Source of the DNA: Krischvirus LF73P4
Reading direction: 5' to 3' (one strand)
Sequence record: OZ035795.1
DNA: 64,000 nt
Part shown: in pieces, positions 36,491-57,867 of the stretch
Layout: each line of letters starts with the position of its first letter
Position numbering within the stretch: the first letter of the stretch is position 1
The notes under the pieces: model-generated
What the model was told of the DNA's origin: nothing
Database searches by the model: none
The model's input: only the letters and a program-made list of their open reading frames with translations
Made by a program: the position numbers and the translations under genes

Positions 36491-36508
36491 GCGGGGAGAA
36501 ATCCCCGC
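36491..36508 (+). promoter_or_regulatory. conserved GCGGGG-AGAAAT-CCCCGC hairpin element
   Basis: perfect 6-bp stem hairpin between td stop and next SD; same element recurs in promoter spacers and after other genes. Confidence 0.5.
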
Positions 36509-36520
36509 TAGGAGTATCAA

Positions 36521-36838
36521 ATGAAAATATGCCGCGTTGTAAACAAGTACAATAGCGATTTTGATGTTAACATTCAGCGTGGTACTATGTGGGGAAATCC
36601 ATACACCGCCAAAGAATACGGACGCGAGAAAGCTATTGCATTATACAAAGAGTGGTTGTATAATAAGATTCGAAATGGTGAGATAACACGAGCGCATTTA
36701 GAAGTATTAAGACATATGCGCTTAGGTTGTACTTGTTACCCTAAGAAATGCCACGGTGAAGTATTGGCGGATCTCGTTAATAGAGTTTTCGGCGATACTC
36801 CAGAAAATACGCTTGATATATTAAGTGAGGTAATATGA
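36521..36838 (+). CDS. hypothetical protein, DUF4326-like (recalled family, unverified)
   Basis: GNPY ... CTCYPKKCHG pattern; directly upstream of nrdA with ATGA overlap. Confidence 0.5.
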   Translation: MKICRVVNKYNSDFDVNIQRGTMWGNPYTAKEYGREKAIALYKEWLYNKIRNGEITRAHLEVLRHMRLGCTCYPKKCHGEVLADLVNRVFGDTPENTLDILSEVI

Positions 36839-39078
36839 TTAAAAATGTTGTTAAGTCTTCCGGTCTGACTGTTCCGTTTGAAAAAGAAAAAGTAATGAAA
36901 ATTCTGGAAGCGGCAGCCGAAGGTCATAACGTTGATCCATATGAATTGTTTGATATGGTTGAACCACTTCTGACAGAAGGTATGTCTACCAATGATATCC
37001 AGAAAGTATTGATTAAGGTCGCCGCAGATAACATCACGGTAGAAACTCCTGATTATCAATATGTAGCAAGTAACCTTGCAATGTTCGCGCTTCGCAAATC
37101 AGTATACGGTCAATTCCAACCGATTGATTTTTACAGCCATATTGAGCGTAATATTGCAACCGGAAAATATGATCGCGAAATTCTGCAAAAATATTCCCGT
37201 GAAGAAGTGGAATATCTGGAGAAATTCATCGACCATAAACTTGATTTTAAAATGACCTATGCTGGTGCGATGCAGTTAAAAGAGAAATATCTTGTTCAAG
37301 ATCGCAGCACCAAGAAAATCATCGAAACACCGCAATTTGCGTATATGCTGATCGGTATGTGCTTGCATCAAGAAGAGACAGAAAATCGACTTGAACATGT
37401 GATTGATTTTTATAATGCGGTTGCGAATAAGCAAATCTCTCTGCCTACTCCGATTATGGCAGGTGTGCGTACCCCAACACGCCAATTTAGTTCGTGTGTG
37501 GTGATTGAAAGTGATGACTCATTGCAGGGTATTAATGAAACCGCAAATGCAATCATCAAGTATATTAGCAAGCGTGCTGGTATCGGTATCAACGCTGGCA
37601 TGATTCGCGCGGAAGGATCTAAGATCGGGCATGGTGAAGTTCGTCATACTGGAGTTATCCCATTCTGGAAACATTTTCAGACTGCCGTTAAGTCATGCTC
37701 ACAAGGCGGTATTCGTGGCGGGGCAGCGACACTCTATTACCCAATGTGGCATTTAGAGTTTGAAAGTCTGATTGTGTTAAAGAACAATAAGGGCGTGGAA
37801 GATAACCGCATTCGTCATCTTGATTACGGCGTACAGATTAATAACCTGATGGTAGAGCGATTCCTTAAACGGGATTACATTACTCTGTTTAGTCCAGATG
37901 TTGCGGGTGGCTTGTTGTGGGATCTGTACTTCCGAGACGAGGAAGGTTTCCGCCAACTTTACGAAAAACTGGAAAAAGATCCGAGTGTTCGTAAAACTCG
38001 TGTTAAAGCCGAAGACCTGTTTTTAGCGGTGGCAATTGAACGTTTTAACACTGGTCGAATCTACCCAACGTTCACAGACAACATGAACAATCACGGGGCG
38101 TTTATTCGTAATGTAGCACCGATTAAACAATCTAACCTGTGTTGTGAAATTGCACTGCCTACTAAACCGATGGGTCGTGATGATTCAGAGATCAGCCTAT
38201 GCACTTTGGCAGCATATGTTTTAGGTAATTTCGATATCGAAAACATGGAAGAAGTAGAACGCATTGCTATGGTTATGGTGCGTGCACTTGACAACCTGTT
38301 AGATTATCAGGATTATCCTGTAGAACAAGCTCTGACAGCAAAAAAACGTCGCTCTCTGGGCGTTGGTGTTACTAACTTTGCATCATATCTCGCGGATAAT
38401 TTCTTCACATATGAAGACGCTAACGAGTTTACGCATAAAACGTTTGAACGCTTGCAATATGCTCTGATTAAGGCTAGTGTGCAACTCGCAAAAGAGAAGG
38501 GTGCTTGCGAACTGATGCACGAAACACGCTACGGTCGCGGTGAACTTCCTATCGACTGGTACAAAAAGACAGTAGATGAACTGGTTGATCCGGTGTATGA
38601 GATGGATTGGGAAGAACTGCGCGAAGACCTGAAAAAATATGGCATTCGTAACAGTACGCTTTCGGCTCTGATGCCTTGTGAGTCGTCTTCTCAGGTATCT
38701 AACAGCACAAACGGTATTGAACCGCCTCGCGGGATTGTATCGGTTAAAGGATCGAAAGAAGGGCAATTTAATCAGGTTATTCCGAACGTAGAGAATAATG
38801 CTGATGTTATTGACCTGCTTTGGACACTGATCAAGAAAGGTAACAAGCCTTATCTGACACTTGCAGCGATCATGCAGAAGTTTGTAGACCAGGCGATTAG
38901 TTCCAACACATCCTACGATCCAAGCACTTATAAGACTGGTAAAGTCGATATTGCTGATGTGTTAGATGATATGTTGTTCGCTCAACATTACGGTCTGAAA
39001 ACCCTGTATTATGCGAACGTTCGCGACGGTGCAGATGGTACGGAAGACGCTAGCGAGTGTTCATCCTGTAAGCTGTAA
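36835..39078 (+). CDS. nrdA: ribonucleotide reductase class Ia, large subunit
   Basis: N-terminal ATP-cone, active-site region NLCCEIALP, C-terminal Cys pair; 747 aa. Confidence 0.95.
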   Translation: MIKNVVKSSGLTVPFEKEKVMKILEAAAEGHNVDPYELFDMVEPLLTEGMSTNDIQKVLIKVAADNITVETPDYQYVASNLAMFALRKSVYGQFQPIDFYSHIERNIATGKYDREILQKYSREEVEYLEKFIDHKLDFKMTYAGAMQLKEKYLVQDRSTKKIIETPQFAYMLIGMCLHQEETENRLEHVIDFYNAVANKQISLPTPIMAGVRTPTRQFSSCVVIESDDSLQGINETANAIIKYISKRAGIGINAGMIRAEGSKIGHGEVRHTGVIPFWKHFQTAVKSCSQGGIRGGAATLYYPMWHLEFESLIVLKNNKGVEDNRIRHLDYGVQINNLMVERFLKRDYITLFSPDVAGGLLWDLYFRDEEGFRQLYEKLEKDPSVRKTRVKAEDLFLAVAIERFNTGRIYPTFTDNMNNHGAFIRNVAPIKQSNLCCEIALPTKPMGRDDSEISLCTLAAYVLGNFDIENMEEVERIAMVMVRALDNLLDYQDYPVEQALTAKKRRSLGVGVTNFASYLADNFFTYEDANEFTHKTFERLQYALIKASVQLAKEKGACELMHETRYGRGELPIDWYKKTVDELVDPVYEMDWEELREDLKKYGIRNSTLSALMPCESSSQVSNSTNGIEPPRGIVSVKGSKEGQFNQVIPNVENNADVIDLLWTLIKKGNKPYLTLAAIMQKFVDQAISSNTSYDPSTYKTGKVDIADVLDDMLFAQHYGLKTLYYANVRDGADGTEDASECSSCKL

Positions 39079-39086
39079 AATAACTG

Positions 39087-39115
39087 TTGACGCGGGGAGA
39101 AATCCCCGCTATAAT
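39087..39115 (+). promoter_or_regulatory. sigma70-type early promoter (PeSL-like)
   Basis: TTGACG (39087-39092), spacer CGGGGAGAAATCCCCGC, TATAAT (39110-39115); 32-bp identical copy at 39977-40008. Confidence 0.7.
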
Positions 39116-39133
39116 GTGAGGTGAATTGTAAGA

Positions 39134-39983
39134 ATGAATTATTACAATGAGTGGGATAAAGGCGCGGCTAACTGGTTACGTGAACTTATAGCAAACAAAT
39201 TAATTCCTTATGGGTATGTCGATGAAAGATCAATTACAGAAGTCACCCCTAGAGATCTGGAAGGATTTACACAATGTCACTTCTTCGCGGGGATTGGGGG
39301 GTGGTCAAGAGCATTGCAACTCGCTGGAGTACCAGAAACAACAAGGCTATGGGCCGGATCGCCACCATGTCAACCATTTTCAAGAGCCGGAAAGCAAAAA
39401 GGAAAGTTCGACGAAAGACACCTTGCACCGACATTTCTTAAACTCGTGTCAGCGTGCAAACCTCCAATGCTCTTTGGGGAACAGGTTGCAAAAGCTATCG
39501 AAACCGGGTGGTTGGATGATCTTCACGAGGAATTGGAAAGAGAAGGTTACAGTGTCGGGGCTGCGGTATTATCATGTGATATCGTCGGTGCGCCGCACAA
39601 GCGGGACAGACTTTTCTTCGGGGCTATTAACGAGTTGGCAAACACCTACTGTAACGAATATATCAGCAAGATCGCCGGGCAATGCAACGGAGAATGGAAG
39701 CGAGACTTGCAACGGGGAGGAAATCACTAGCGCCGGGAAATTTATCAGAACAAGTGAAGATGTATTACGGTTTTGGGACAGTGGAACAGAGTATCTATGC
39801 AGAGACGGGAAAAAACGAATTGTTGAACCCACGATTCCCTTGTTGGCTGATGGGGTATCCTCAACAATGGGACGATTGCGCGGTTATGGCAATGCGATAG
39901 TTCCTCAAGTCGGAGCACTTTTTATAGAAAGTTTTGTAGGTGCTTACATTGATGCTTGCGATGGATTGTCAAATAGCTGTTGA
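39134..39983 (+). pseudogene. DNA cytosine-C5 methyltransferase (Dcm-like) disrupted by frameshifts
   Basis: frame 2 carries motifs I (FAGIGG), IV (SPPCQPFS), VI (EQV), VIII (RDRLF); motif IX-like LMGYPQQW lies in frame 1 (39850-39879) and motif X GNAIVPQV in frame 0 (39888-39911). Confidence 0.6.
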
Positions 39984-40008
39984 CGCGGGGAGAAATCCCC
40001 GCTATAAT
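39980..40008 (+). promoter_or_regulatory. sigma70-type early promoter (PeSL-like)
   Basis: TTGACG (39980-39985), CGGGGAGAAATCCCCGC spacer, TATAAT (40003-40008). Confidence 0.7.
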
Positions 40009-40039
40009 ACAACCATCAAAAACAAGTGAGGATTTTATT

Positions 40040-40207
40040 ATGACCAAATTAAAATGTGTTGCTGTAGATTTTGAACTAGCTGATAGCTTTGTTGTTGGTG
40101 ATGAATATGATGCTCGACATGATGGGACTTGCTACTACGTCGAGGATGAATACGGTGTAGAATGGGCGATTCTTCCTGATGATAAATGTTTTGAGGTTGT
40201 CGGATAA
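40040..40207 (+). CDS. hypothetical protein (55 aa)
   Basis: SD2 context GTGAGGATTTTATT-ATG; ORF track 39980..40207 trimmed. Confidence 0.45.
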   Translation: MTKLKCVAVDFELADSFVVGDEYDARHDGTCYYVEDEYGVEWAILPDDKCFEVVG

Positions 40208-40380
40208 TGGCTACTGTATGGTTATTGATTGCAATAAGCAATTCAATGTATAATTACGGAAATATGTCAAGCATTGAGTTTGCAACAAAGCAGGATTGCG
40301 TTAAAGCTCGCGAGATTATCCGCGAAGACAATAAACGCTTTATGAATCTATATTGCGTTGAAAAACAAAAGGTGAACTAA
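40207..40380 (+). CDS. hypothetical small protein (57 aa), MATxWLL family A; not in ORF track
   Basis: TAATG-coupled ATG; N-terminus MATVWLLIAIS... Confidence 0.4.
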   Translation: MATVWLLIAISNSMYNYGNMSSIEFATKQDCVKAREIIREDNKRFMNLYCVEKQKVN

Positions 40381-40547
40381 TGGCTACATTATGGTTATTG
40401 CTTTCCGTTAGCGTAGGCGTATATAATAAAGGAACTGTTACCAGCGTAGAGTTTTCATCATATCAAAATTGTTTTGAAGCTGTGCAGGAATTGCAGCAGG
40501 ATAGCGAAATAAACAGAAATACTAAGTTCTTTTGTGTTAAAAAGTGA
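40380..40547 (+). CDS. hypothetical small protein (55 aa), MATxWLL family B; not in ORF track
   Basis: TAATG-coupled ATG; N-terminus MATLWLLLSVS..., paralog of preceding ORF. Confidence 0.4.
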   Translation: MATLWLLLSVSVGVYNKGTVTSVEFSSYQNCFEAVQELQQDSEINRNTKFFCVKK

Positions 40548-40562
40548 TAGTGAGGTGAATTA

Positions 40563-41726
40563 ATGAGCGTATTTAACCGCGAACATGTTGATATTATGAA
40601 CGAACCGATGTTTCTGGGTAGTGGGTTGGGTATCGCTCGCTATGATATTCAGCGTCATCAAGTATTTGAAGAATTAATTGAAAAATCTCTGTCATTTTTC
40701 TGGCGTCCAGAAGAGATTTCACTTGCAACCGACCGCATTCAATATCTTAATATGGGTGACGTTGAAAAGCGTTTCTTTACCGAAAACTTGAAGTATCAGA
40801 CATTACTTGATTCTATTCAAGGTCGCGCACCGTCCGCAGCATTTGGTCCAATTGTATCTGATCCAACTCTCGATACATGGTTGCAAACATGGACATTCAG
40901 CGAAACGATTCATAGCAGAAGCTATACACACATTATGCGTAACTGTTTCATTGATCCGGCTAGTGAGTTCGACCAGATCATCGATAACCCTGCTATCATG
41001 AAGCGAGCGGAATCTATCGGGAAATATTATGATGATGTTCTGGTGAAAATCCGTGAATACGAGGACGCTAAAGAAAGTTTTAGTCGTTCTTCTGAAAATG
41101 AATTTGACCTTGATGCATATTCTGATAGCATTTCGTACGTGGAAGAAACTAAACGCAATCTGATGGAATCACTCTATCTGTGTATGCATTGCGTTAATGC
41201 ACTGGAGGCAATCCGTTTTTATGTGTCCTTTGCATGTACTTTCAGCTTTGCCGAACGTGGTTTACTGGAAGGTAACGCGAAGATCATGAAATTTATTGCG
41301 CGTGATGAACAACTTCACTTAAAAGGCACACAATACATTATTCGTCAATGGCAAACGGGGGTTGATGGTGATGAGTGGAAACAGATTGCGGAAGAACTTG
41401 AAGGCGAAGCAACGAAAATCTTTCTGGATGTTGTCGAGCAAGAAAAAGAATGGGTAGACCACCTATTCGCAATGGGGTCAATTCCTGGCTTGTCACCGGA
41501 AATTCTGAAAACTTATGTAGAATACCTGGCAGATTCCCGTATGCGTGCTGTCGGACTGAAAAGCCCGTTTAGTGTTCGTCGTCATCCTTTACCGTGGATG
41601 CGTAAGTGGTTAAACTCTGACGAAGTACAGAATGCAGCGCAAGAAGTAGAGATTATGTATCTGGTATCTCAGGTTAATACCGATTTAACAGACGATGACT
41701 ACAACCGATTCGGGAAATATCTATGA
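40563..41726 (+). CDS. nrdB: ribonucleotide reductase class Ia, small subunit
   Basis: diiron/tyrosyl radical protein signature segments; 387 aa; SD2-like GTGAGGTGAATTA-ATG. Confidence 0.95.
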   Translation: MSVFNREHVDIMNEPMFLGSGLGIARYDIQRHQVFEELIEKSLSFFWRPEEISLATDRIQYLNMGDVEKRFFTENLKYQTLLDSIQGRAPSAAFGPIVSDPTLDTWLQTWTFSETIHSRSYTHIMRNCFIDPASEFDQIIDNPAIMKRAESIGKYYDDVLVKIREYEDAKESFSRSSENEFDLDAYSDSISYVEETKRNLMESLYLCMHCVNALEAIRFYVSFACTFSFAERGLLEGNAKIMKFIARDEQLHLKGTQYIIRQWQTGVDGDEWKQIAEELEGEATKIFLDVVEQEKEWVDHLFAMGSIPGLSPEILKTYVEYLADSRMRAVGLKSPFSVRRHPLPWMRKWLNSDEVQNAAQEVEIMYLVSQVNTDLTDDDYNRFGKYL

Positions 41727-42199
41727 TATATTTTGTCGATTTAGATTTTACGATCACAGATCCAACGCATCGACTAGCAAAGATGCCAACCGAAAATCTT
41801 GATAAAGTCGAGTCATGGATCGAATATAACAAAGCATGTGGGGGAGATTCCCCCATTTACGATGTAATTCGTGTTATTAATGCTCTTTCCGACAACGGGC
41901 ATTTGATTTACATCCTCACAGGACGAAGTTCACATGCTTACATGGAAACAATTGATTGGTTAATTTCTAACGGGGTGTGTTTTGATAAAATCTTTATGAG
42001 AGGCCGTACCGATTCCCGTAAAGACTATCACATCAAATTAGAGGTAATTAAATCCTTTGATAAAGATGAAGTTGTCGGAGTCTTTGAGGATAACCCAGAA
42101 GTGATTAAAGTTTTGCGTGAAAATGGTTATCGTGTCTTTGACGTAGGAAATCACAAAGATAAGACGCGAGCGGATATTGCAAATCACGGTCATGATTAA
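41723..42199 (+). CDS. HAD-superfamily phosphatase-like protein
   Basis: N-terminal VDLDFTIT (DxDxT) motif; ATGA overlap with nrdB stop. Confidence 0.55.
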   Translation: MIYFVDLDFTITDPTHRLAKMPTENLDKVESWIEYNKACGGDSPIYDVIRVINALSDNGHLIYILTGRSSHAYMETIDWLISNGVCFDKIFMRGRTDSRKDYHIKLEVIKSFDKDEVVGVFEDNPEVIKVLRENGYRVFDVGNHKDKTRADIANHGHD

Positions 42200-42208
42200 T
42201 GTTTGTTC

Positions 42209-42236
42209 AAAGTCGCCCATAGTGGCGACTTTTTTG
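42209..42236 (+). terminator. rho-independent terminator
   Basis: AGTCGCC-CATAGT-GGCGACT hairpin followed by TTTTTTG. Confidence 0.7.
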
Positions 42237-42246
42237 TTATTGGGTG

Positions 42247-42275
42247 TTGACAATCTGATCTTGCCATAGCATAAT
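42247..42275 (+). promoter_or_regulatory. sigma70-type early promoter
   Basis: TTGACA (42247-42252), 17-nt spacer, CATAAT (42270-42275). Confidence 0.65.
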
Positions 42276-42299
42276 ACGCACATCGAAACGGAGGAACAT

Positions 42300-42518
42300 A
42301 TGGAAACAGAAGAACAAGTCATTGCATATTTTCATCGTAAAAAGATGAAACTTAGAATCGAAAAGCAGTACATCAATCACTACATTGACCGAGTTCACTT
42401 AACAAGTACACCTTACCTATTCCGGTTGATAAACCCTAGAAAACGGTGGGAGAAGTTGGATAGAAACACAAAAATAATTGATAAGCTCACCCAATGGTGG
42501 AATGAATACAACAAGTAA
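42300..42518 (+). CDS. hypothetical protein (72 aa)
   Basis: SD ACGGAGGAACAT-ATG downstream of promoter. Confidence 0.5.
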   Translation: METEEQVIAYFHRKKMKLRIEKQYINHYIDRVHLTSTPYLFRLINPRKRWEKLDRNTKIIDKLTQWWNEYNK

Positions 42519-42525
42519 AAAGTAG

Positions 42526-42554
42526 TTGACACTGAATAACGGGGGTAGTAAGAT
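42526..42554 (+). promoter_or_regulatory. sigma70-type early promoter (PeSL-like)
   Basis: TTGACA (42526-42531), 17-nt spacer, TAAGAT (42549-42554); GGGGGTAGTA...TACTCCC palindrome. Confidence 0.65.
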
Positions 42555-42587
42555 ACTCCCATCGAAACGAAACAAAGGAGAATCAAA

Positions 42588-42806
42588 ATGAAATTTACTT
42601 GCACCGACTCTATCAGCAAACACTTTGTAGTAGGCGAAGTATACGAATCTACTACCATTCGCCAGCGTGACCTGATGGGTCGCCTTTACAATCAGCCAGT
42701 ATTCATTATTGGCGAAGAATTGTTCTACATTGAAAACCGTCCGTGGGTTGCTTTCAATAAACGAGGACGCAAGGTAGCAAAATTCGAACTTGTCATTAAA
42801 AAGTAG
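42588..42806 (+). CDS. hypothetical protein (72 aa)
   Basis: SD1 context. Confidence 0.5.
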   Translation: MKFTCTDSISKHFVVGEVYESTTIRQRDLMGRLYNQPVFIIGEELFYIENRPWVAFNKRGRKVAKFELVIKK

Positions 42807-42835
42807 TTGACAGCATGAAACGGGGGTAGTAATAT
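42807..42835 (+). promoter_or_regulatory. sigma70-type early promoter (PeSL-like)
   Basis: TTGACA (42807-42812), 17-nt spacer, TAATAT (42830-42835). Confidence 0.65.
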
Positions 42836-42873
42836 ACCCCCATCGAAACGAAATACACTTTAAGGAGAATCAA

Positions 42874-43023
42874 ATGAACAACTTTGACGCGGTACTGAAA
42901 ATGGCAATCGAAACTTACGCGGAGATCTCCGGCGAGAAAGTAGAGGACATTATCAAAGAATGTCAGAACTTTGAAAGCCAGACAGCCAAGAATGTTCAAA
43001 TGTTGATGTTTGCGGTTGCATAA
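42874..43023 (+). CDS. hypothetical protein (49 aa); not in ORF track
   Basis: SD1 context AAGGAGAATCAA-ATG after promoter. Confidence 0.45.
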   Translation: MNNFDAVLKMAIETYAEISGEKVEDIIKECQNFESQTAKNVQMLMFAVA

Positions 43024-43031
43024 AAAAGCAG

Positions 43032-43060
43032 TTGACAGCATATCACGGGAGTAGTAAGAT
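43032..43060 (+). promoter_or_regulatory. sigma70-type early promoter (PeSL-like)
   Basis: TTGACA (43032-43037), 17-nt spacer, TAAGAT (43055-43060). Confidence 0.65.
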
Positions 43061-43093
43061 ACTCCCATACCAAAACAACTAAGGAGTATCAAG

Positions 43094-43492
43094 ATGATTA
43101 AATTTCAAACTCGCAAAGATGTTCTGGACTTCGTTAAAGTTTTCGGTTACGCTGCATTGCAACATGCAATGGACAAAATGGCCATCTCCCCAGATCAGAC
43201 TATGCTGATCCGTATGGTTAAAGCAACCGCCTACAAAAACGACATTACCCTCTCAGAAATCAACGACGGTAATACTGTTCGCGAGGTAATTGTTTCTTTC
43301 GAATCACCGAAAATTGGCGGTTTTCATACCACGATGTTAGGTGAAATCACTGTCACTGTATACGGGCAAGGTGGCGGAGTGTTTACCGTCAAAGAAGCAA
43401 TGGAAAATGGAACGCTGAACAAAGAAAAACTGGAATTTGTCCTGAAAATCATCAAGGAGCGTAACGAAGCTCGCGATATTCTGGAAAGTTAA
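43094..43492 (+). CDS. hypothetical protein (132 aa)
   Basis: SD AAGGAGTATCAAG-ATG. Confidence 0.55.
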   Translation: MIKFQTRKDVLDFVKVFGYAALQHAMDKMAISPDQTMLIRMVKATAYKNDITLSEINDGNTVREVIVSFESPKIGGFHTTMLGEITVTVYGQGGGVFTVKEAMENGTLNKEKLEFVLKIIKERNEARDILES

Positions 43493-43498
43493 TAAGGT

Positions 43499-43523
43499 GG
43501 GCGGGAGAAATCCCGCCTTTGTT
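43499..43523 (+). terminator. terminator-like hairpin (GCGGGA-GAAA-TCCCGC)
   Basis: hairpin followed by CTTTGTTG; weak U-tract. Confidence 0.45.
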
Positions 43524-43542
43524 GTGACGTGAGGAAAGGATA

Positions 43543-45109: not shown

Positions 45110-45114
45110 TAATA

Positions 45115-45139
45115 AGCGGGGCTAGTTCCCCGCCTTTTG
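45115..45139 (+). terminator. terminator-like hairpin (GCGGGG-CTAGTT-CCCCGC)
   Basis: hairpin followed by CTTTTGTCG. Confidence 0.5.
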
Positions 45140-45154
45140 TCGTTGGGGGGTAAT

Positions 45155-48219: not shown

Positions 48220-48248
48220 GGCGGGAAATAATCCCGCCTATATTTTGG
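48220..48248 (+). terminator. terminator-like hairpin (GGCGGGA-AATAA-TCCCGCC)
   Basis: hairpin followed by T-rich TATATTTTGG. Confidence 0.5.
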
Positions 48249-48290
48249 CTATATGATTTTGTAAGTTATTGATTATTAAGGAATTTTATT

Positions 48291-50407: not shown

Positions 50408-50873
50408 TAATGAAGGGGCGAAAGCCCCTAAACCTAAAAAATTGTCAAAGAAAGAGCAACGCCAGATCCTGAAAATGAAATATGGTGGACGTTGTGCCTA
50501 TTGTGGCGAGGAACTAGGGGATCGCTGGCACGCAGACCACATCAAACCAGTATTGCGACGCTCAAAGGTAGTCTATGATGAAAATGGACGAATTGCCCGT
50601 AATGATGATGGATCGTGGAAGTATAAGGTTGTAGGAATGCATAAACCGGAACATGATATACTTGATAACATGAATCCGGCGTGTGTGCAATGCAATCTTT
50701 ATAAAAGCTGTATGGGCTTAGAATACTGGCGTAAGTGTATACGCGAGAACTTCCAGAAGTACATTCAGCGCAATATGGGATTGCGAGCGGCTAAACGCTT
50801 TGGCTTGCTGTCAATTCATGACCAGCCAGTAGAATTTTATTTCGAAAAGTACGAGCGCGAAAATAAGGAGTAA
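50400..50873 (+). CDS. HNH endonuclease
   Basis: CAYCGEELGDRWHADHIKP ... NMNPACVQCN HNH motif. Confidence 0.7.
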   Translation: MCDNEGAKAPKPKKLSKKEQRQILKMKYGGRCAYCGEELGDRWHADHIKPVLRRSKVVYDENGRIARNDDGSWKYKVVGMHKPEHDILDNMNPACVQCNLYKSCMGLEYWRKCIRENFQKYIQRNMGLRAAKRFGLLSIHDQPVEFYFEKYERENKE

Positions 50874-50880
50874 CCATTAT

Positions 50881-51225
50881 ATGTTCTTTCTGTTTATCTA
50901 TATCCTTTTTGTTTTCCTGGTAGGCATGTACGCAAGCCGTTTAAACCGTAGCGTTATCGGTTATGTTATCCTATCATTGATCATTAGCCCGTTGATCACC
51001 TTTATCATTTTGTTGGTGTTGGGTCCAACGAAATCATATGAACAGGAACAAGCAGACAAGCTAAAAGCCGAGATGGTAGAGAAACAATTTGTTCAACTGT
51101 ATCTAGAAAACCCAGATTTTGAGGAAGTTTCCACCCTTAAGCGAATGTATGACGATCTAACACGATACCCTAACTATCGAAATGTGCTGGCTATGGAAGA
51201 AGCCATTAAGCTCATGAAAAAATAA
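50881..51225 (+). CDS. hypothetical membrane protein (114 aa)
   Basis: two N-terminal hydrophobic helices; SD AAGGAGT. Confidence 0.5.
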   Translation: MFFLFIYILFVFLVGMYASRLNRSVIGYVILSLIISPLITFIILLVLGPTKSYEQEQADKLKAEMVEKQFVQLYLENPDFEEVSTLKRMYDDLTRYPNYRNVLAMEEAIKLMKK

Positions 51226-51238
51226 TTCAAAAAAGTTG

Positions 51239-51267
51239 TTGACAGGGGATCACGTATCCCCTATACT
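51239..51267 (+). promoter_or_regulatory. sigma70-type early promoter (PeSL-like)
   Basis: TTGACA (51239-51244), palindromic spacer GGGGATCACGTATCCCC, TATACT (51262-51267). Confidence 0.7.
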
Positions 51268-51309
51268 ACACACATCAAAACGAAACACACTTTCTTAAGG
51301 AGAATCAAA

Positions 51310-51588
51310 ATGAGCAACCTGTCTTTCGCTAAAGTAGAAATTTCTAAAACTCGCGGTGGCTTTAAAATCAAAACTTCCAATATCACTTCCTGCCGTGGTT
51401 GCGTCCGGTTTGCGTTCGACTTGGCAGCGAAGCTGGGTATTAAAACCTTTACCGTTGAGAGCGGATCTAACTGGACCACTCTGATTGTTACTGCCGCTTG
51501 GATTAATGGCGAGTATGTGGAAAAAGCATACTTTGACATTTTCTATGACTATGAAGAAAAATGCTTTTATGCACTGCAAGACATGTAA
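51310..51588 (+). CDS. hypothetical protein (92 aa)
   Basis: SD1 context. Confidence 0.55.
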   Translation: MSNLSFAKVEISKTRGGFKIKTSNITSCRGCVRFAFDLAAKLGIKTFTVESGSNWTTLIVTAAWINGEYVEKAYFDIFYDYEEKCFYALQDM

Positions 51589-51598
51589 GGAGGATAAC

Positions 51599-51907
51599 GT
51601 GACAACACAAGATATTGTTAATGTGCTTTATATCTGGACTACTGGTGCAATGATCTCGTATCTAGTATTCTGCTTGTACGCCAGATTCGACAAGGACACC
51701 AAAGAGGTCGATACAGGAGCATTTTGTATTGCTGCAATCGTATGGCCTATAACGTGGACCGTGGTTGATATTGTTATGTGTTATAAAGGATTGAAATGTT
51801 TTGGTTTGATGATTGCTGGTAAACCGGAAGCGAAGCCGCGCAAGCATAAAGGATTTACTCCAAAACAAGAAGACGACGGTCGATATAAACCGGAAGAAGA
51901 TTTTTAA
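51599..51907 (+). CDS. hypothetical membrane protein (GTG start after AAGGAGGA)
   Basis: strong SD 5 nt upstream of GTG; hydrophobic helices; ORF track 51485..51907. Confidence 0.4.
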   Translation: MTTQDIVNVLYIWTTGAMISYLVFCLYARFDKDTKEVDTGAFCIAAIVWPITWTVVDIVMCYKGLKCFGLMIAGKPEAKPRKHKGFTPKQEDDGRYKPEEDF

Positions 51908-51912
51908 AACAG

Positions 51913-51941
51913 TTGACATGAAAATGCGGTTATCCTATAAT
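51913..51941 (+). promoter_or_regulatory. sigma70-type early promoter (PeSL-like)
   Basis: TTGACA (51913-51918), 17-nt spacer, TATAAT (51936-51941); GCGGTTAT/ATAACCGC palindrome around -10. Confidence 0.65.
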
Positions 51942-51975
51942 AACCGCATCAAATGAACGATGTGAGGATTATATT

Positions 51976-52284
51976 ATGTTTATCTCTTCTGCTACTCCAG
52001 TTAAAGTTTACGGCGAAACTGTGTATCTTCCGGCTGGCTATCGCTATGTTATCGTTGACCGTCACGGTGTAGTGTATGCTTTTAAAGGCCGTCCGGTTGA
52101 GATTGATTCTGAATATGGCACATGGGGATATAAAGCCGCATACATGGATATTCCTGATTTGGGAGTACGTTTAGGAAGATTTGATAATGATGTTAAACCA
52201 TGCTTGATTAAGTATGCATCCTATGGTAAAACTGTTAAACCAAATAGCGTCGGCTGGATTGATGACGGCGTTAACGTGAAATAA
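51976..52284 (+). CDS. hypothetical protein (102 aa)
   Basis: exact SD2 context. Confidence 0.5.
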   Translation: MFISSATPVKVYGETVYLPAGYRYVIVDRHGVVYAFKGRPVEIDSEYGTWGYKAAYMDIPDLGVRLGRFDNDVKPCLIKYASYGKTVKPNSVGWIDDGVNVK

Positions 52285-52298
52285 TGTGAGGTGAATTT

Positions 52299-52592
52299 AT
52301 GCTGTCTACTCGTAAAATGGTTGTTGGTGTCGCTGAAAATGCTTTAGAAATCGCTGATGAGGCTTTGACCGTCGCTTATGTTCGACGTGAAGAATTGCTA
52401 TTGAAACACGCGGATCTATTGGTTGAACGGAAAGAGACTATGAAAGCTGGTAAAAGCACGCTCGCGATTGCCATTAAACTATCTGATAGTGAAGATGAGA
52501 TCGTGGAGATCCACACTAAGATCAAGGAAGTAGAAAAATACTCTGAAATGCTGCGACATAATCTTGATGAATTAGGGGTAAATCATGGCTAA
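52299..52592 (+). CDS. hypothetical protein (97 aa)
   Basis: SD2-like GTGAGGTGAATTT-ATG. Confidence 0.5.
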   Translation: MLSTRKMVVGVAENALEIADEALTVAYVRREELLLKHADLLVERKETMKAGKSTLAIAIKLSDSEDEIVEIHTKIKEVEKYSEMLRHNLDELGVNHG

Positions 52593-52806
52593 GTTACGAT
52601 CTGGACGAGTTTTAACGCTGGCTGAACTGAAAGAAAAAGGTTTAGACCCTGATTCTGTAGGTATTAGACCTATTAATTACATTCTGTTTCTAGAGGGTAA
52701 ACTCTTTACTAATGCTCATCCAGCATTAAATGCACCACATTTTTATAAGTGTAATGACTTTAACGGTTATATCGTTCCAGAATATTTCTTAGAATTTGAT
52801 GATTAG
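52585..52806 (+). CDS. hypothetical protein (73 aa)
   Basis: ORF track; coupled to upstream gene. Confidence 0.45.
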   Translation: MAKLRSGRVLTLAELKEKGLDPDSVGIRPINYILFLEGKLFTNAHPALNAPHFYKCNDFNGYIVPEYFLEFDD

Positions 52807-53092
52807 TATAAAACACTCACCGACCGGAAAGGGGTCGGTGATCTTCAATGACGATAAACCGTTAATCTTGATTCGTAATGGTGACTGGACATTGCATGAT
52901 ACCCGTGTTACTATCCATTCACCGCCTAAAGAGATTCAACGGGAATTGGTTAGGATCGCCCTAACCGATAAGCATAAAGAGGCGGTAGGCTATTCTCTTC
53001 TGAAATTAGGTGTTGACTTTCCTTTCGAGTATACGCTAACATTCAGAGAGCAGTCAGTGAAGCTAACAGAGATTCTATTCTCTGAGATATGA
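52796..53092 (+). CDS. hypothetical protein (98 aa)
   Basis: ORF track; no clear SD. Confidence 0.4.
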   Translation: MMISIKHSPTGKGSVIFNDDKPLILIRNGDWTLHDTRVTIHSPPKEIQRELVRIALTDKHKEAVGYSLLKLGVDFPFEYTLTFREQSVKLTEILFSEI

Positions 53093-53102
53093 GGATTATA
53101 TA

Positions 53103-53534
53103 ATGGTTTATCCAACTCCTAGTAAGATTTACATTGACGATACTCATTTTCTTGTTGAAATTATGGGTATAAAGTTTAGTGGTAATGTTAAAATTGTAGA
53201 ATGGGAATTGCACGGTCAACCTGTAACCGATTATGACAATTATATCCCTTTCGGTGGCGATGATAACTTTGTTTCATTCGACCATGAAGGTTACATGAAC
53301 TTTGAGCAAGACGATGTACCTTTGTATCTGGCAATGATGGATATTCCTACCAAAACAGAATATACAGAGGGTGATTGCGATTGTTGCGGATACTACAGCG
53401 TAACAGATATTAAGCTGCCATCCGGTAAAGAACTTTACAAAGAGGATCATTTCGGAAACTGCAATTTTCCGTGTGATTGGCAAGAATTTTTTGAACTGGT
53501 AGAGATTGAGCGAACTTATTTGAGGAAGGGATAA
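53103..53534 (+). CDS. hypothetical Cys-containing protein (143 aa)
   Basis: SD2 context; CDCCGY and CNFPC cysteine clusters. Confidence 0.5.
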   Translation: MVYPTPSKIYIDDTHFLVEIMGIKFSGNVKIVEWELHGQPVTDYDNYIPFGGDDNFVSFDHEGYMNFEQDDVPLYLAMMDIPTKTEYTEGDCDCCGYYSVTDIKLPSGKELYKEDHFGNCNFPCDWQEFFELVEIERTYLRKG

Positions 53535-54346
53535 TGAAGAAAGCATTAGGTTTAATTCCCTATACGGGCAATAAGGAAAAGTTATTGCCTGGTGTTAGTA
53601 AGTATTTCCCTAAGCACTATAACCGCTTTGTCGATGCCTTTTGTGGCGGTTTGAGCGTGTCTCTGTACGTCGAAGGGGATGTTCTGGCTAATGACTATGA
53701 TCACCGCTTAATTGATGCTTACAAAGCGATTGACGAGTGTCCTGATCCGGTTTTTATGATCAAGCGGATTATTGCCGAAAATGGTTTGTCTCGTGATGAT
53801 AAAGATGCTTACATGGCATTCCGTAAGAAGTATAATGAGAATCCAGATCCGCTATCTCTGTTTGTTCTGATTCAGCACAGTTTTAGCAACATTAACCGCC
53901 ATAACCGGAAGGGCGAATTTAATGCTAATTTTGGTCGCCGGACTTTTAACGAAAACGCGGTAGAGCGTGTCCTGAATTTTAAGGAAGAAAACAAAGACGG
54001 TCGAATCAATTTTACGTCTGGTCGTTATGACGAGATCGAGATCTTGCCCGGTGATTTCGTTTATTTGGACCCGCCGTACCTTATCACTTCTGCGGAATAT
54101 AATAAGTTCTGGAGTGACGAGGAAGAGATTAAATTCTATCAGTGGGTGGAATCTATTATGGCGCGTGGTTTTCAGTTTGGTATCAGTAATGTCACGCATC
54201 ATAAGGGAAAGGTAAATGATCATCTTCTTGACTTTATCAAGCGGAATGATCTAAACTGCGTCCTGTTGAATAAGACCTATTGCCTAGATCGTTCAGGTGG
54301 CAAGTCTTCTGATACGCAAGAAGTTTATGTAACTAACGTAGATTGA
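53534..54346 (+). CDS. dam: DNA adenine (N6) methyltransferase, T4 Dam-like
   Basis: FVDAFCGGLSVSL, DPPY motif (FVYLDPPYLITSAEYNKFWS) closely match T4 Dam. Confidence 0.9.
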   Translation: MKKALGLIPYTGNKEKLLPGVSKYFPKHYNRFVDAFCGGLSVSLYVEGDVLANDYDHRLIDAYKAIDECPDPVFMIKRIIAENGLSRDDKDAYMAFRKKYNENPDPLSLFVLIQHSFSNINRHNRKGEFNANFGRRTFNENAVERVLNFKEENKDGRINFTSGRYDEIEILPGDFVYLDPPYLITSAEYNKFWSDEEEIKFYQWVESIMARGFQFGISNVTHHKGKVNDHLLDFIKRNDLNCVLLNKTYCLDRSGGKSSDTQEVYVTNVD

Positions 54347-54354
54347 GGTATAAT

Positions 54355-54636
54355 ATGGTAGAAATTTTTGGTTTTGAAGGTTACAACTGTAAGTATTGCC
54401 AGAATGCAAAGCGCCTTTGTGAATCGCGTAAGATCCCTTACATCTACATTCCGGTTAATGATGGTGTAGACGAAAACGGTCGTCCGGTAAAGATTGATTC
54501 TATCATTGCCGACATTCAGGATCGCGCAGGGGTAGAAGTTATTGCCACCATGCCGCAGATTTTCTATAATGGTGATTATATAGGTGGTTTTGATGAGTTC
54601 AGATCCTTTGTAGTCAAAAACAAGATTAATGGTTAA
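54355..54636 (+). CDS. nrdC: glutaredoxin/thioredoxin (T4 NrdC-like)
   Basis: CKYCQNAKRL redox motif and TMPQIFYNGDYIGGFDEF; start adjusted to ATG 54355. Confidence 0.8.
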   Translation: MVEIFGFEGYNCKYCQNAKRLCESRKIPYIYIPVNDGVDENGRPVKIDSIIADIQDRAGVEVIATMPQIFYNGDYIGGFDEFRSFVVKNKING

Positions 54637-54660
54637 ATACCTTCTTTGGAGGGTGAATTT

Positions 54661-55134
54661 ATGTTACTGACTGCTAAGAGTGCTAAAGAGTACAAACAAG
54701 AACTATTCGAAAAACAGGGGGGCATTTGCCCCCTTTGTCAATTGCCCCTTTTTGAGGATATGAGCAAAAACCATCTTGACCACGACCACGATCTAGATGG
54801 GAAAGGTCAAGGCCGTGTAAGGGGATTGCTTCATTCGTGTTGCAACCGCCTAGAAGGATCGTTGACCGGAGACTTTAAGCGGTTTGGAGTTGGTGCTTTA
54901 GGTGCTGATTTCGTTGTTTGGGCTACAAACTATGTTAATTACATCAAAGGAGACTACACCAACAATCATTTACATCCTCAATATGCTGTTGATAAAGTAA
55001 AACGATTTTCACGCTTGACACGCGCGGAGATGGTTGCTATTATGGACGCAGAAGGTTTCGATTACTGCGACGCTGATACACGAGAAGAAATCACGAAGAA
55101 GTATAAGAAACAATTTATACAAAGATTAAGATAG
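54661..55134 (+). CDS. 49: endonuclease VII (T4 gp49-like Holliday junction resolvase)
   Basis: CPLCQ ... NHLDHDHDLDGKGQGRVRGLLHSCCN and C-terminal region match T4 endo VII; start adjusted to ATG 54661. Confidence 0.9.
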   Translation: MLLTAKSAKEYKQELFEKQGGICPLCQLPLFEDMSKNHLDHDHDLDGKGQGRVRGLLHSCCNRLEGSLTGDFKRFGVGALGADFVVWATNYVNYIKGDYTNNHLHPQYAVDKVKRFSRLTRAEMVAIMDAEGFDYCDADTREEITKKYKKQFIQRLR

Positions 55135-55137
55135 TGG

Positions 55138-55166
55138 TTGACAATAAGAAATGGGAGTAGTAAAAT
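55138..55166 (+). promoter_or_regulatory. sigma70-type early promoter (PeSL-like)
   Basis: TTGACA (55138-55143), 17-nt spacer, TAAAAT (55161-55166). Confidence 0.65.
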
Positions 55167-55197
55167 ACTCCCATCTAATCAAGAAGGAGAATCAACA

Positions 55198-55470
55198 ATG
55201 CGTAAGATGTTTAAAGCTGGTGTGGCCTATGTTTTTAAATCTGAGCAAGCACGTAAAGACTTCTTAGAGGACGACTACGAAGGTCTGAAAGATACCTACG
55301 AAGCAATCAAGAATGGATTTACTGTTCTTAAAGTGTCACCTATTGGTTATGTAAGTGAAATCTCGGTTGATGGGAAAACCTACACCGCTAAAGACTTTGA
55401 TCCGCGTTGGGAATTTATGCTGCTTCCATGTGACCGCATTCTGTTTCGTGCTGTTCAATTAGTGAAATGA
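55198..55470 (+). CDS. hypothetical protein, GFxVL/KDF family member (start adjusted)
   Basis: SD1-like AAGGAGAATCAACA-ATG; shares NGFTVLKV segment with following genes. Confidence 0.5.
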   Translation: MRKMFKAGVAYVFKSEQARKDFLEDDYEGLKDTYEAIKNGFTVLKVSPIGYVSEISVDGKTYTAKDFDPRWEFMLLPCDRILFRAVQLVK

Positions 55471-55484
55471 TAGAGGATTATATT

Positions 55485-56051
55485 ATGGTACAGAAAACGT
55501 ATAAATTGTATCCGGCTAAGTCTTCAAATGATGCTGTTTTTGAACGAGGTCGTTATTACACTTTCCGTAATGCTGAGTCCGCAGTGGAATTTGTTAAACG
55601 CTATCCACAACATAACAAATTCCTGCATGATGTGCTTCGCAATGGCTTTAAAGTTCTGACGGTTAATGTTATGGGTAAAGTGTATTTGGTAGAAACTCAT
55701 GATTATGAGGGCGCGTCAATAATGATTGATGCAAGCGAGCGAAAATACTTTAAACGCATCACTAAAAAGCAGTTTGAAGAAATGAAACCAGTTAAGAAAG
55801 AAGAATCTCTGGAAGACCTGATTAACTTGTTTGCGAAGTCTTCTTTGGTGTCATTGACGCTGGAAGATTTTAGCTTTGATAATCAGCTATACTTTAAAAA
55901 TGCAGATGACTTGAAAGATTTTCTGATTGAGAATAAACCTAAGCTAGAAACCTATATCAAAGGTGAGCTTAAGCGCATGGAACATCAAGCAAAATATAGC
56001 GCCGATAAAGTAGCTGAACTGAAAGAGATCCAAAAGTCATTTAACGCTTGA
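55485..56051 (+). CDS. hypothetical protein, GFKVL/ERKYFKRI family member
   Basis: exact SD2 context; RNGFKVLTV and ERKYFKRITK segments. Confidence 0.5.
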   Translation: MVQKTYKLYPAKSSNDAVFERGRYYTFRNAESAVEFVKRYPQHNKFLHDVLRNGFKVLTVNVMGKVYLVETHDYEGASIMIDASERKYFKRITKKQFEEMKPVKKEESLEDLINLFAKSSLVSLTLEDFSFDNQLYFKNADDLKDFLIENKPKLETYIKGELKRMEHQAKYSADKVAELKEIQKSFNA

Positions 56052-56076
56052 CATGATGAAACGGGAGTAGTAAGAT
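56048..56076 (+). promoter_or_regulatory. sigma70-type early promoter (PeSL-like)
   Basis: TTGACA (56048-56053) overlapping upstream stop, 17-nt spacer, TAAGAT (56071-56076). Confidence 0.65.
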
Positions 56077-56107
56077 ACTCCCATCTAAACAACGAGAGGA
56101 TTATATT

Positions 56108-57286
56108 ATGGCTAAATTCTTTGAAGGTCATTACTATGCATTCCGTGAAGGCGGTAAAGATGAGTTTCTAGACTTTTCTCGCTATTCAATTATTCTGACC
56201 GATGCTTCGCGCCGTGGTCATATTCGGGTTGCTGAAATCGTAGAAAAGGGCTTTAAAGTATTAGAAAAAGATGACCACGGTCATGTTATTACTATTGAAG
56301 CTGGAGATGTAGTTTATTCCGCTAATGATATTGTTGATTATTGGGCTACTATGATTATGAACAATGAGCGCAAATACTTTAAACGTATCTCAAAAGAGGC
56401 ATACGAAGCGATGAACAAGAAAGAGGATGCAATGCCGACTTACTTTGAAAAAGGTAAATGTTATTCGTTTACCCCAGAAGGTTTGCAAGAATTTAAGCGA
56501 TTCTGGGGAGAGCATGACCCAGAGCACAAAGAAGCTATGAAACTTGTTGATTTTGTCGAATATGGCTTTTTAGTTGAAGAAGAATTGCACGGATCAGCTA
56601 CCATGATCACCGCGAAAGGTGAAACTGTTAAGGCAGATCGTTTTTGTGACCAATGGAATTGCTTGTTTGACGGTAGCGAATTTGAATACTTCGCGGAAAT
56701 CACGCGAGTTGAATATGTCCGTATGCAGGAGCGTGGTCAGAGATTTAAAGTAGGCGAACGCTACAAACCAAATCCACATAATTTGCCTCATTGGTTTAAC
56801 ACTGAAACCGTATCCAGTCATGTTATTGAAATTGTTCAAAAGCTGGAACATGGATTTAAGGTAACTAAAGTAGATTCTTTCGGAAGTGTTGACGCGGTTG
56901 AAATTGATGGTGTAGAATATACACCGAAATCTTTCGGGCTTTGCTGGTATCACTTGATCAGCAATGATGAACGTTATAACTTTGTTGAACTGCCATCTGA
57001 ACCGGAAGAAGCACTAGAAGATCATGATCATCTGTCTGAACTGGTTAAGCTGTTTGGTGATCTGCCGGATGGTGTGGGTGTTGCGGTAATGGGTGAAGGT
57101 ACTGTTATTCGCAACCTGAAAGACCTTAAAAAGTTCTTGATCGACATGCTTCCTAAACTCGATGAGAATCTAGATACAGATATTCAGAATCGCAAAGAAA
57201 TTGTTAAAGAGACTGAAAAAGAGATCGAAGAGATTCGAGCAATTCGCCAGAAGGTGAAAGCAGTAAAGAAAAAAGTTAGTGTTTGA
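56108..57286 (+). CDS. hypothetical protein with internal repeats, GFKVL/ERKYFKRI family (392 aa)
   Basis: repeated GFKVL/GFLVE/GFKVT units and NERKYFKRISK; C-terminus similar to 55485..56051. Confidence 0.5.
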   Translation: MAKFFEGHYYAFREGGKDEFLDFSRYSIILTDASRRGHIRVAEIVEKGFKVLEKDDHGHVITIEAGDVVYSANDIVDYWATMIMNNERKYFKRISKEAYEAMNKKEDAMPTYFEKGKCYSFTPEGLQEFKRFWGEHDPEHKEAMKLVDFVEYGFLVEEELHGSATMITAKGETVKADRFCDQWNCLFDGSEFEYFAEITRVEYVRMQERGQRFKVGERYKPNPHNLPHWFNTETVSSHVIEIVQKLEHGFKVTKVDSFGSVDAVEIDGVEYTPKSFGLCWYHLISNDERYNFVELPSEPEEALEDHDHLSELVKLFGDLPDGVGVAVMGEGTVIRNLKDLKKFLIDMLPKLDENLDTDIQNRKEIVKETEKEIEEIRAIRQKVKAVKKKVSV

Positions 57287-57310
57287 CATGCGAAGGGAGT
57301 ATGCTATAAT
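57283..57310 (+). promoter_or_regulatory. sigma70-type early promoter (PeSL-like)
   Basis: TTGACA (57283-57288), 16-nt spacer, TATAAT (57305-57310). Confidence 0.65.
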
Positions 57311-57340
57311 ACTCCCACTTAACAACGAGAGGATTATATT

Positions 57341-57835
57341 ATGTGGGTACAAGATGTTTGGTATACTGTAACTAAAGAAAACCTTGACGCATTCAGCGAC
57401 CAATCTTGCGCTAATAGCTCAATTGCTGGTATACTTACTGATGTGTTTGGTGGTGTTGATAAAATTCGTTTTAAAGTTGTTGTTAGTTCGATGGGGCATG
57501 TGCAAGATCTTTACACCGAAGATAAAGACCTTGATCTTGAACTTCGTCTTCGTATTGAGAATGCAAGTCTAGGTTATTGGTTTGAAGATAACGAGTATGA
57601 ATACTTCACACCAGCAATTAAAGTTTTTGCAACTAAACTGGAAGCTGTACTAAATCTCCGACCAATTAATGTTGACGGTTACATTATCAAAAATATTCAG
57701 GAGTGGGATTCATATCTAGATCAGATTATCCGAAATAGTAAGCAGGAAGCCGCTAATAAGAAGCGACAAGAGATCAAACAACTGAAAGCTGAACTGGAAG
57801 CGGCGGAAAAAGAATTAGCAGAACTGGTAAAATAA
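57341..57835 (+). CDS. hypothetical protein (164 aa) with C-terminal coiled coil
   Basis: exact SD2 context. Confidence 0.5.
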   Translation: MWVQDVWYTVTKENLDAFSDQSCANSSIAGILTDVFGGVDKIRFKVVVSSMGHVQDLYTEDKDLDLELRLRIENASLGYWFEDNEYEYFTPAIKVFATKLEAVLNLRPINVDGYIIKNIQEWDSYLDQIIRNSKQEAANKKRQEIKQLKAELEAAEKELAELVK

Positions 57836-57844
57836 CTATCAACG

Positions 57845-57867
57845 AGCGGGAGAAATCCCGCTTTTTC
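57845..57867 (+). terminator. rho-independent terminator (AGCGGGA-GAAA-TCCCGCT)
   Basis: hairpin followed by TTTTTC. Confidence 0.6.

Follow-up and report, generated by a model that had tools for sequence, protein, structure and literature searches.

A G/C-rich hairpin in promoter spacers and behind genes of Krischvirus LF73P4: promoter-early stem-loop cassettes and terminator-type hairpins

Introduction

Among the T4-like phages, RB49 and phi1 carry regulatory elements that Arbiol et al. 2010 (PMC2839356) named 'promoter-early stem-loops' (PeSLs). According to that paper, the stem-loop of a PeSL is most often located between the -35 box and the -10 box and is proposed to terminate or attenuate transcription coming from upstream. 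The stem-loop of PeSL211/210 was as effective as rrnB T1 in lowering the expression of lacZ, and the promoter of PeSL206/205 gave approximately 13,000 Miller units. In the same paper, about 50 PeSLs per genome are said to flank variable open reading frames (ORFs), and they are proposed to mediate modular shuffling. The PeSL idea was later extended to other T4-like phages by Comeau et al. 2014 (PMC4122927). Here we describe a short G/C-rich hairpin with a GAAA loop that recurs in a stretch of 64,000 nucleotides from Krischvirus LF73P4 (sequence record OZ035795.1; the window), both inside promoter spacers and on its own behind genes. We consider it very probable that PeSL cassettes, together with ordinary post-gene terminator-type RNA hairpins, explain all of its copies, which makes the finding essentially an ordinary one whose PeSL part has already been described. 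The in vivo promoter and terminator activities reported by Arbiol et al. concern related PeSLs and not the exact GAAA-loop hairpin, and the accessible text of that paper does not single out either this hairpin or its stand-alone copies.

Results

Recurrence, fold and position of the hairpin

The window matches Krischvirus genomes (such as RB49, phi1, JSE and KMB43) at 96-99% identity, and its source is an RB49-like (Krischvirus) T4-type coliphage. An exact pattern search finds GCGGGGAGAAATCCCCGC at 36491-36508, 39092-39109 and 39985-40002, GCGGGAGAAATCCCGC at 43501-43516 and 57846-57861, GCGGGGCTAGTTCCCCGC at 45116-45133, and GCGGGAAATAATCCCGC at 48221-48237, where one further G-C pair extends the hairpin to 48220-48238. 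The remaining copy is on the minus strand and reads TTGACA-CGGGGAGAAATCCCCG-TATAAT from 7758 to 7731 (Table 1). All eight sites listed in a preliminary description of this DNA, which had reported one hairpin both in promoter spacers and alone after genes, were recovered by this search, five of them exactly where they had been placed and three shifted by one base (45116, 48221 and 57846 instead of 45115, 48220 and 57845). The gene neighbourhoods given there agree with the RB49 annotation, with copies after td, after the ORF upstream of denA, after rnlA and after the gene 31 co-chaperonin, and one copy before nrdD.

The recurrence of the hairpin is real and strongly non-random. A comparison with shuffled sequence, which the preliminary description had named as a possible refutation, gave 4 and 7 pattern matches in the window versus 0.00 in 100 dinucleotide-preserving shuffles, and the 14-mer core with up to 2 mismatches is present 6 times versus 0.21 expected. 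The element had been described as a GCGGGG stem with an AGAAAT loop; it is indeed a hairpin, but the outer A and U of that loop form a closing pair, leaving GAAA, a GNRA tetraloop, as the true loop and giving a G/C-rich stem of 7-8 bp. Every one of the eight copies folds as predicted, with energies of -12.2 to -18.8 kcal/mol and z-scores of -2.2 to -5.1, and every one has the short loop and the G/C-rich stem, 5 bp or longer, that characterise intrinsic terminators. All eight are located in intergenic gaps, and the five stand-alone copies are in the sense orientation, 6-11 nt past stop codons.

Table 1 Positions of the hairpin copies, PeSLs, methyltransferase cassette and matching genome segments in the window (energies are predicted folding energies).
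Feature	Position	Strand or orientation	Sequence elements	Context	Energy (kcal/mol)
Minus-strand PeSL	7731..7758	-	TTGACA; CGGGGA-GAAA-TCCCCG as 16-nt spacer; TATAAT		-14.7
Stand-alone hairpin	36491..36508	+	GCGGGGA-GAAA-TCCCCGC	6 nt past td stop, 12 nt before nrdA.1-like (DUF4326) ORF	-14.9
Left PeSL	39074..39115	+	A-rich leader; -35 box TTGACG 39087-39092; hairpin GCGGGGA-GAAA-TCCCCGC 39092-39109; -10 box TATAAT 39110-39115	after nrdA	-15.1
C5 cytosine DNA methyltransferase cassette	39116..39966	+	851 bp, PF00145	between two PeSLs	
Right PeSL	39967..40008	+	-35 box 39980-39985; hairpin 39985-40002; -10 box 40003-40008		
Stand-alone hairpin	43499..43518	+	GGGCGGGA-GAAA-TCCCGCCT, tail TTGTTGTG	6 nt past stop of ORF 43094-43492, upstream of denA	-18.8
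Stand-alone hairpin	45116..45133	+	GCGGGG-CTAGTT-CCCCGC, tail CTTTTGTCGTT	6 nt past rnlA stop	-12.2
Stand-alone hairpin	48220..48238	+	GGCGGGA-AATAA-TCCCGCC, tail TATATTTTGG	11 nt past gene 31 co-chaperonin stop	-14.1
Further PeSL, different hairpin	51229..51310	+	TTGACA GGGGATCACGTATCCCC TATACT; PeSL211/210 hairpin at 51239		
Stand-alone hairpin	57844..57863	+	GAGCGGGA-GAAA-TCCCGCTT, T run continuing TTTC	8 nt past stop of ORF 57341-57835, 16 nt before nrdD start	-17.0
Genome segment	1-5698	reverse		RB49 variable region after gene 30	
Genome segment	5605-24851			matches KMB43 43.7-63.4 kb	
Genome segment	24743-51313	reverse		matches KMB43 149.3-123.0 kb	
Genome segment	51219-64000	reverse		matches KMB43 43.8-30.3 kb	

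The GAAA hairpin is one of several G/C hairpin families that are used in the same way in the window. Some 41 near-consensus sigma-70 promoters are present, about 10 of which hold a G/C hairpin in the spacer, with stems of the families CGGGGA-GAAA-TCCCCG, GGGGATC-NNN(N)-GATCCCC and GGGGAG-GATAA-CTCCCC. Counting G/C hairpins over the whole window yields 54 hairpin calls (30 distinct sites) against 3.1 calls in shuffled sequence, an excess of about 10x. Of the 30 distinct hairpins at least 18 are intergenic, although the non-coding share of the window is only about 9%. The promoters are embedded in repeated cassettes of 58-101 nt that have an A-rich leader and, downstream, a conserved leader with a Shine-Dalgarno sequence. 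These cassettes form the repeat families D1-D7, and the inverted repeats I11-I13 tie the copies at 39980 and 7731 to other PeSLs. Scanning the whole window for Rfam families (at the gathering threshold) and for tRNAs gave no matches.

The copies inside promoters are PeSLs

The three in-promoter copies are instances of the published PeSL cassette. Their layout is that of a PeSL: they are intergenic, an A/T-rich leader precedes them, a Shine-Dalgarno sequence and an ORF follow, and they form part of a repeated cassette of 60-100 nt. The promoters at 39087 and 39980 read TTGACG-17 nt-TATAAT, with the sixth base of the -35 box doubling as the first base of the stem, and the boxes at 39087, 39980 and 7758 (minus strand) score 11-12 out of 12. 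Taken alone, the spacer hairpins have predicted energies of -10.3 to -10.7 kcal/mol, and with their flanks -14.7 to -15.5 kcal/mol. The two plus-strand copies constitute a 42-nt direct repeat (39074-39115 and 39967-40008) that is 95% identical overall and fully identical in hairpin and boxes, and the minus-strand PeSL pairs with the PeSL at 39969-40016 as inverted repeat I13. The PeSL after nrdA, comprising -35 box, hairpin and -10 box, is the same in RB49, JSE, ECD7, G37-3 and Makalu_001. The PeSL with a different hairpin at 51229-51310 is the orthologue of PeSL211/210 of RB49/phi1. Together with 5609-5690 it makes up an inverted repeat of 82 nt.

We also observed a second PeSL subclass, whose GGGGGTAGTAAGATACTCCC-like stem-loop overlaps with the -10 box, at 42516-42594, 42797-42875, 43022-43100, 55128-55206 and 56048-56126. 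On the downstream side of these elements a conserved leader follows, with a Shine-Dalgarno sequence of the GGAG type (GGAGAATCAA) similar to the target consensus of the endoribonuclease RegB (families D4 and D7).

A methyltransferase cassette between two PeSLs

The left and right PeSLs enclose a cassette (39116-39966) with a C5 cytosine DNA methyltransferase gene. RB49 and most Krischvirus genomes lack the methyltransferase segment and have a single PeSL in its place, so that the PeSLs here are associated with an insertion or deletion as published PeSLs are. The PeSL-flanked presence or absence of this gene exemplifies, in textbook fashion, the shuffling of modules by PeSLs. Relative to KMB43, in which the gene is intact (283 amino acids), the gene in the window (39134-39983) has a 2-nt deletion near 39679 that shifts the frame and splits it into two frames; either the gene is a pseudogene or the sequencing is in error here. 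Another difference from KMB43 is that 3 nt (ATA) are missing from the left PeSL behind its -10 box.

The stand-alone copies are terminator-type hairpins

The five stand-alone copies are ordinary intergenic terminator-type hairpins, the one at 57844-57863 being of the canonical intrinsic type, and not PeSLs in the strict sense. A terminator scan picks up those at 43499-43518, 45116-45133 and 48220-48238. A U-tract directly 3' of the stem is present at 43501, 45116, 48221 and 57846, the tail being T-rich at 43501, 45116 and 57846 (TTTTTC) and partly so at 48221; at 36491 the tract is absent (TAGGAG) and at the PeSL copies it is partial (TATAAT). Records of relatives carry terminator annotations at the corresponding places: that of G37-3 after td, after ORF 43094-43492 (ARNOLD, -16.8), after rnlA and after gene 31, that of Makalu_001 after ORF 43094-43492, after gene 31 and before nrdD, and that of GEC-3S before nrdD. 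The preliminary description had proposed a terminator or an RNA-processing signal, and the predicted features of the hairpins are in keeping with the first of these.

For each stand-alone site we compared the orthologous position in four to five relatives. After ORF 43094-43492, rnlA and gene 31, the hairpin likewise stands alone in RB49, JSE, ECD7, G37-3 and Makalu_001, with changes only in the loop or the outer pairs, and the hairpin at 43499-43518 is identical in five relatives. Before nrdD, KMB43 has the same hairpin, and RB49, GEC-3S, Makalu_001 and Whisky have a GAAAA loop. In every relative examined, four of the five sites have the same hairpin free of promoter boxes; the td site is also free of boxes but has another stem in four of five relatives, namely GGGGGC-GAAA-GCCCCC, with the same tetraloop, in RB49, JSE, ECD7 and G37-3. 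The GCGGGGA...TCCCCGC stem is found after td in the window and in Makalu_001 (where the loop is GGAA, still GNRA), in both cases together with an nrdA.1-like DUF4326 ORF. Covariation was compared within the genus, where substitutions are few; the next relatives of RnlA in the phage collection have less than 45% amino acid identity and their intergenic regions are therefore not alignable, and IMG/VR holds only two Krischvirus-like gene 31 loci.

The nrdA.1-like ORF (36521-36838) is located between td and nrdA. It is near-identical (at least 99%) in only 6 phage records, was confirmed in Makalu_001 and Makalu_003, and is absent from RB49, JSE, ECD7 and G37-3. Many other T4-like phages have a homologue in this place. 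We considered whether this ORF might be a mobile PeSL cassette and rejected the idea because the gene is found at the td-nrdA position in a wide range of T4-like phages; RB49 seems to have undergone a deletion or replacement here.

Many more terminator-type hairpins with GAAA or UUCG tetraloops are present in the window, for example at 20688-20709 (minus strand), 26049-26067 (minus strand) and 50414-50429, and some of these have internal G·U pairs that form on the sense strand only. One GGGGGC-GAAA-GCCCCC hairpin between late tail-fibre genes is identical to the hairpin after td in RB49.

The same 18-mer in other phages

Behind stop codons, at least 120 viral contigs contain the identical 18-mer, and almost all of these contigs come from other, unrelated phages. 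Among the matches listed there are 96 distinct viral contexts, and a long ORF ends just upstream only in the GAAA orientation in 50 of these and only in the opposite orientation in 6; about a third to a half of the listed contexts have T-rich tails. Some 25 of the listed contigs (L002, L004, L061 and L068 among them) have one conserved context around the 18-mer, ...GAGGAGTAAGAGACCCG-hairpin-CACCTCTGATG..., and presumably represent one unrelated phage or prophage family.

Selection at the RNA level and a possible mechanism

Three observations, namely a strand bias of the tetraloops, the occurrence of the 18-mer in other phages and the interchange of stems, point to selection on RNA stability. 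Among the four-base loops of G/C hairpins in the window, GNRA or UNCG sequences account for 15 of 25 on the sense strand versus 1 of 23 on the antisense strand, a bias that points to RNA stability and not to a protein recognition sequence as the selected property. G·U wobbles give a weak signal (11 of 35 sense versus 6 of 25 antisense), and since the antisense cases are trivial extensions of perfect stems, we relied on the tetraloop asymmetry instead. Different stems fill the same functional positions, both after td and in other PeSLs.

On the sense transcript, the hairpin would act as a terminator or attenuator, and it probably also protects the 3' end. In a PeSL, the transcript arriving from the upstream gene would fold the hairpin and stop, and RNA polymerase recognising the flanking -35 and -10 boxes in duplex DNA would start a new transcript downstream of the hairpin. 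The repeated appearance of nearly the same hairpin could have a physical and a copying component. A 17-nt spacer fits only about 7 bp plus a tetraloop, and a strong spacer hairpin must therefore be nearly all G/C and GNRA-capped; more generally, a strong hairpin would be obtained in about 18 nt only with a near all-G/C 7-bp stem and a GNRA tetraloop. In addition, whole cassettes may be duplicated by homologous recombination, as for the PeSLs flanking the methyltransferase. That transcription stops at these particular copies, and how efficiently it does so, is something we infer.

Several points weigh against so simple an account. The in-promoter copies do not have a canonical U-tract and are followed by UAUAAU, and the copy at 36491 has no T-tract, with the Shine-Dalgarno sequence of the next ORF (TAGGAG) coming directly after the stem; these four copies may do no more than attenuate transcription or give stability to 3' ends, and not terminate efficiently. 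The GGGG/CCCC core is common to all PeSL stems, and could reflect selection on sequence as well as on structure. Some of the copies in the window share a common origin, which makes the orientation counts not fully independent, and a search of the literature found no transcript-end data for Krischvirus.

Genome layout of the window

Comparison with 58 Krischvirus records shows that the window is colinear with none of them, with three breakpoints (segments in Table 1). Two of these, at 5609-5690 and 51229-51310, are an inverted PeSL pair (I1) of 82 nt that is 95% complementary and bounds a 45.5-kb segment. The third, at 24743-24851, lies in a sequence of about 110 nt that forms an inverted repeat in KMB43 (63.3 and 149.2 kb). 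A public short-read contig from Logan (ERR12949693_9) containing ORF 50881-51225 stops 60 nt past the gene, at approximately position 51285 of the window, and so shows that assemblies break at these repeats. Because this contig end is inside the PeSL cassette 51229-51310, the rearrangement may have arisen by misjoining of repeats during assembly and not be biology, and we regard the non-colinearity as either recombination at regulatory repeats or a misjoin. PeSL repeats of about 80-100 nt are a known assembly hazard and may account for the lack of colinearity with the reference genomes.

Discussion

The best surviving alternative is that the hairpins, with or without boxes, serve mainly as DNA-level homology patches or cruciform targets that drive the insertion, deletion and inversion of modules. 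We hold this to be possible but doubtful. It draws support from the methyltransferase cassette missing in RB49, which is flanked by PeSLs identical in hairpin and boxes, from the two of three window breakpoints that fall in the inverted PeSL pair, and from the td site, where the hairpin allele differs between genomes that have the nrdA.1-like ORF and genomes that lack it; PMC2839356 also sets out PeSL shuffling and a mini-circle model. Against it, the homology relevant to such events is the whole cassette of 42-100 nt and not the 18-nt hairpin, and the hairpins at 43501, 45116, 48221 and 57846 are at no indel border in any genome compared. A role at the DNA level also leaves the sense-strand tetraloop bias unexplained, and the large rearrangement may be an artefact of assembly, as discussed above. 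A linker function in recombination may exist in addition to the RNA role of PeSLs and terminators, and not instead of it. A stronger form, in which the G/C hairpin itself is a preferred DNA recombination substrate in Krischvirus, as a cruciform or hairpin for a structure- or sequence-specific protein, strikes us as improbable. If true, hairpins with or without boxes would mark module borders and could mediate very large rearrangements, examples being the apparent 45.5-kb inverted segment and the swap of hairpin alleles at td/nrdA.1.

The preliminary description had suggested that a common factor binds all copies. In this case a phage or host protein would recognise the palindrome GCGGGGAGAAATCCCCGC in its DNA or RNA form, both in promoters and behind genes, and co-regulate these sites. 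The GGGAGAAATCCC core is indeed present in five to six copies and GGGG...CCCC in all PeSL stems, and Arbiol et al. (PMC2839356) speculated on a recombination protein binding GGGG...CCCC. However, the identical 18-mer occupies the same post-stop-codon position in phages that are nearly all unrelated, relatives have another stem at the td site and a pentaloop, one base longer, at the nrdD site, and other stems are found in the same promoter spacers. The loop is moreover a generic GNRA tetraloop, with the strand bias that RNA stability predicts. These data make a common sequence-specific factor very unlikely, and we do not retain the suggestion.

The other explanation put forward at the outset, that the stand-alone hairpins descend from PeSLs and lost the -35 and -10 boxes by mutation, is less likely still. 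Intact PeSLs do have this hairpin sequence too, and the copy at 48221 is flanked by TTTAAA (4 of 6 matches) and TATATT (5 of 6), but these would be separated by a spacer of about 20 nt, which is too long, and at the other four sites the best boxes reach only 2-3 of 6 (-35) and 3-4 of 6 (-10) at the wrong spacing. The orthologous sites compared, in four to five relatives each, have no promoter boxes either, and four of the five copies have T-rich tails typical of purpose-built terminators. Finally, nhmmer profiles built from the upstream and downstream promoter flanks recover 37 of 41 and 30 of 41 training promoters, respectively, but none of the five stand-alone sites (within 70 nt, E<=100).

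Least probable of all is an RNA-processing signal in which GGAG at the stem/loop junction is cleaved by RegB or another endoribonuclease: GGAG is part of the hairpin, a RegB gene is present in this phage group (KMB43 annotation) and PeSL cassettes of families D4 and D7 have a GGAG Shine-Dalgarno sequence, but the RegB/S1 target is a single-stranded 11-nt GGAGRAYARAA (PMC1702504), whereas the GGA of the hairpin is base-paired, the AAAUCCC downstream departs from the consensus and the copies at 45116 and 48221 have no GGAG. Given that GGAG motifs of T4 buried in stable terminator-type stem-loops resisted RegB (PMC1702504), we rejected a RegB site on these published substrate rules.

With PeSL cassettes and post-gene terminator-type hairpins as the preferred explanation, the consequence is mainly one of annotation, the positions reported here being ones to annotate as early promoters and terminators. 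A reading from sequence alone rediscovered the PeSL architecture, and the methyltransferase locus adds a clean example of PeSL-flanked shuffling.

Several known systems invite comparison. The GGGC/GCCC inverted-repeat deletion hotspots of T4 (Mosig 1998) and the PeSL-like elements of the T-even internal-protein (IP) loci (Repoila 1994), which we compare as they are presented in the discussion of PMC2839356, resemble the present elements as short G/C palindromes or promoter-plus-stem-loop motifs bordering variable, non-essential genes; they differ in sequence, and their promoters are of the T4 type and not of the sigma-70 consensus type. Like the lambdoid 'morons' (Hendrix et al. 2000, as discussed in PMC2839356), the methyltransferase gene brings along a promoter and terminator signals of its own and is insulated in its transcription, but here the regulatory signals are also the repeated homology for insertion, and the cassette is oriented as its neighbours are. 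With Rho-independent terminators the hairpins share a G/C-rich stem of 7-8 bp, a GNRA tetraloop and a position on the sense strand a few nt past a stop codon, together with the T-rich tail at 43501, 45116, 57846 and, in part, 48221 and the terminators predicted in relatives by ARNOLD and other tools; the copy at 36491 and the in-promoter copies differ in having no proper U-tract. The closest match is the PeSL, found in the same genus, with consensus sigma-70 boxes, an A/T-rich leader, a polyG/polyC stem-loop between the boxes, an intergenic position, a Shine-Dalgarno sequence and ORF downstream, and copies flanking an indel cassette: the three in-promoter copies differ from it in nothing substantive, whereas the five stand-alone copies lack the promoter half.

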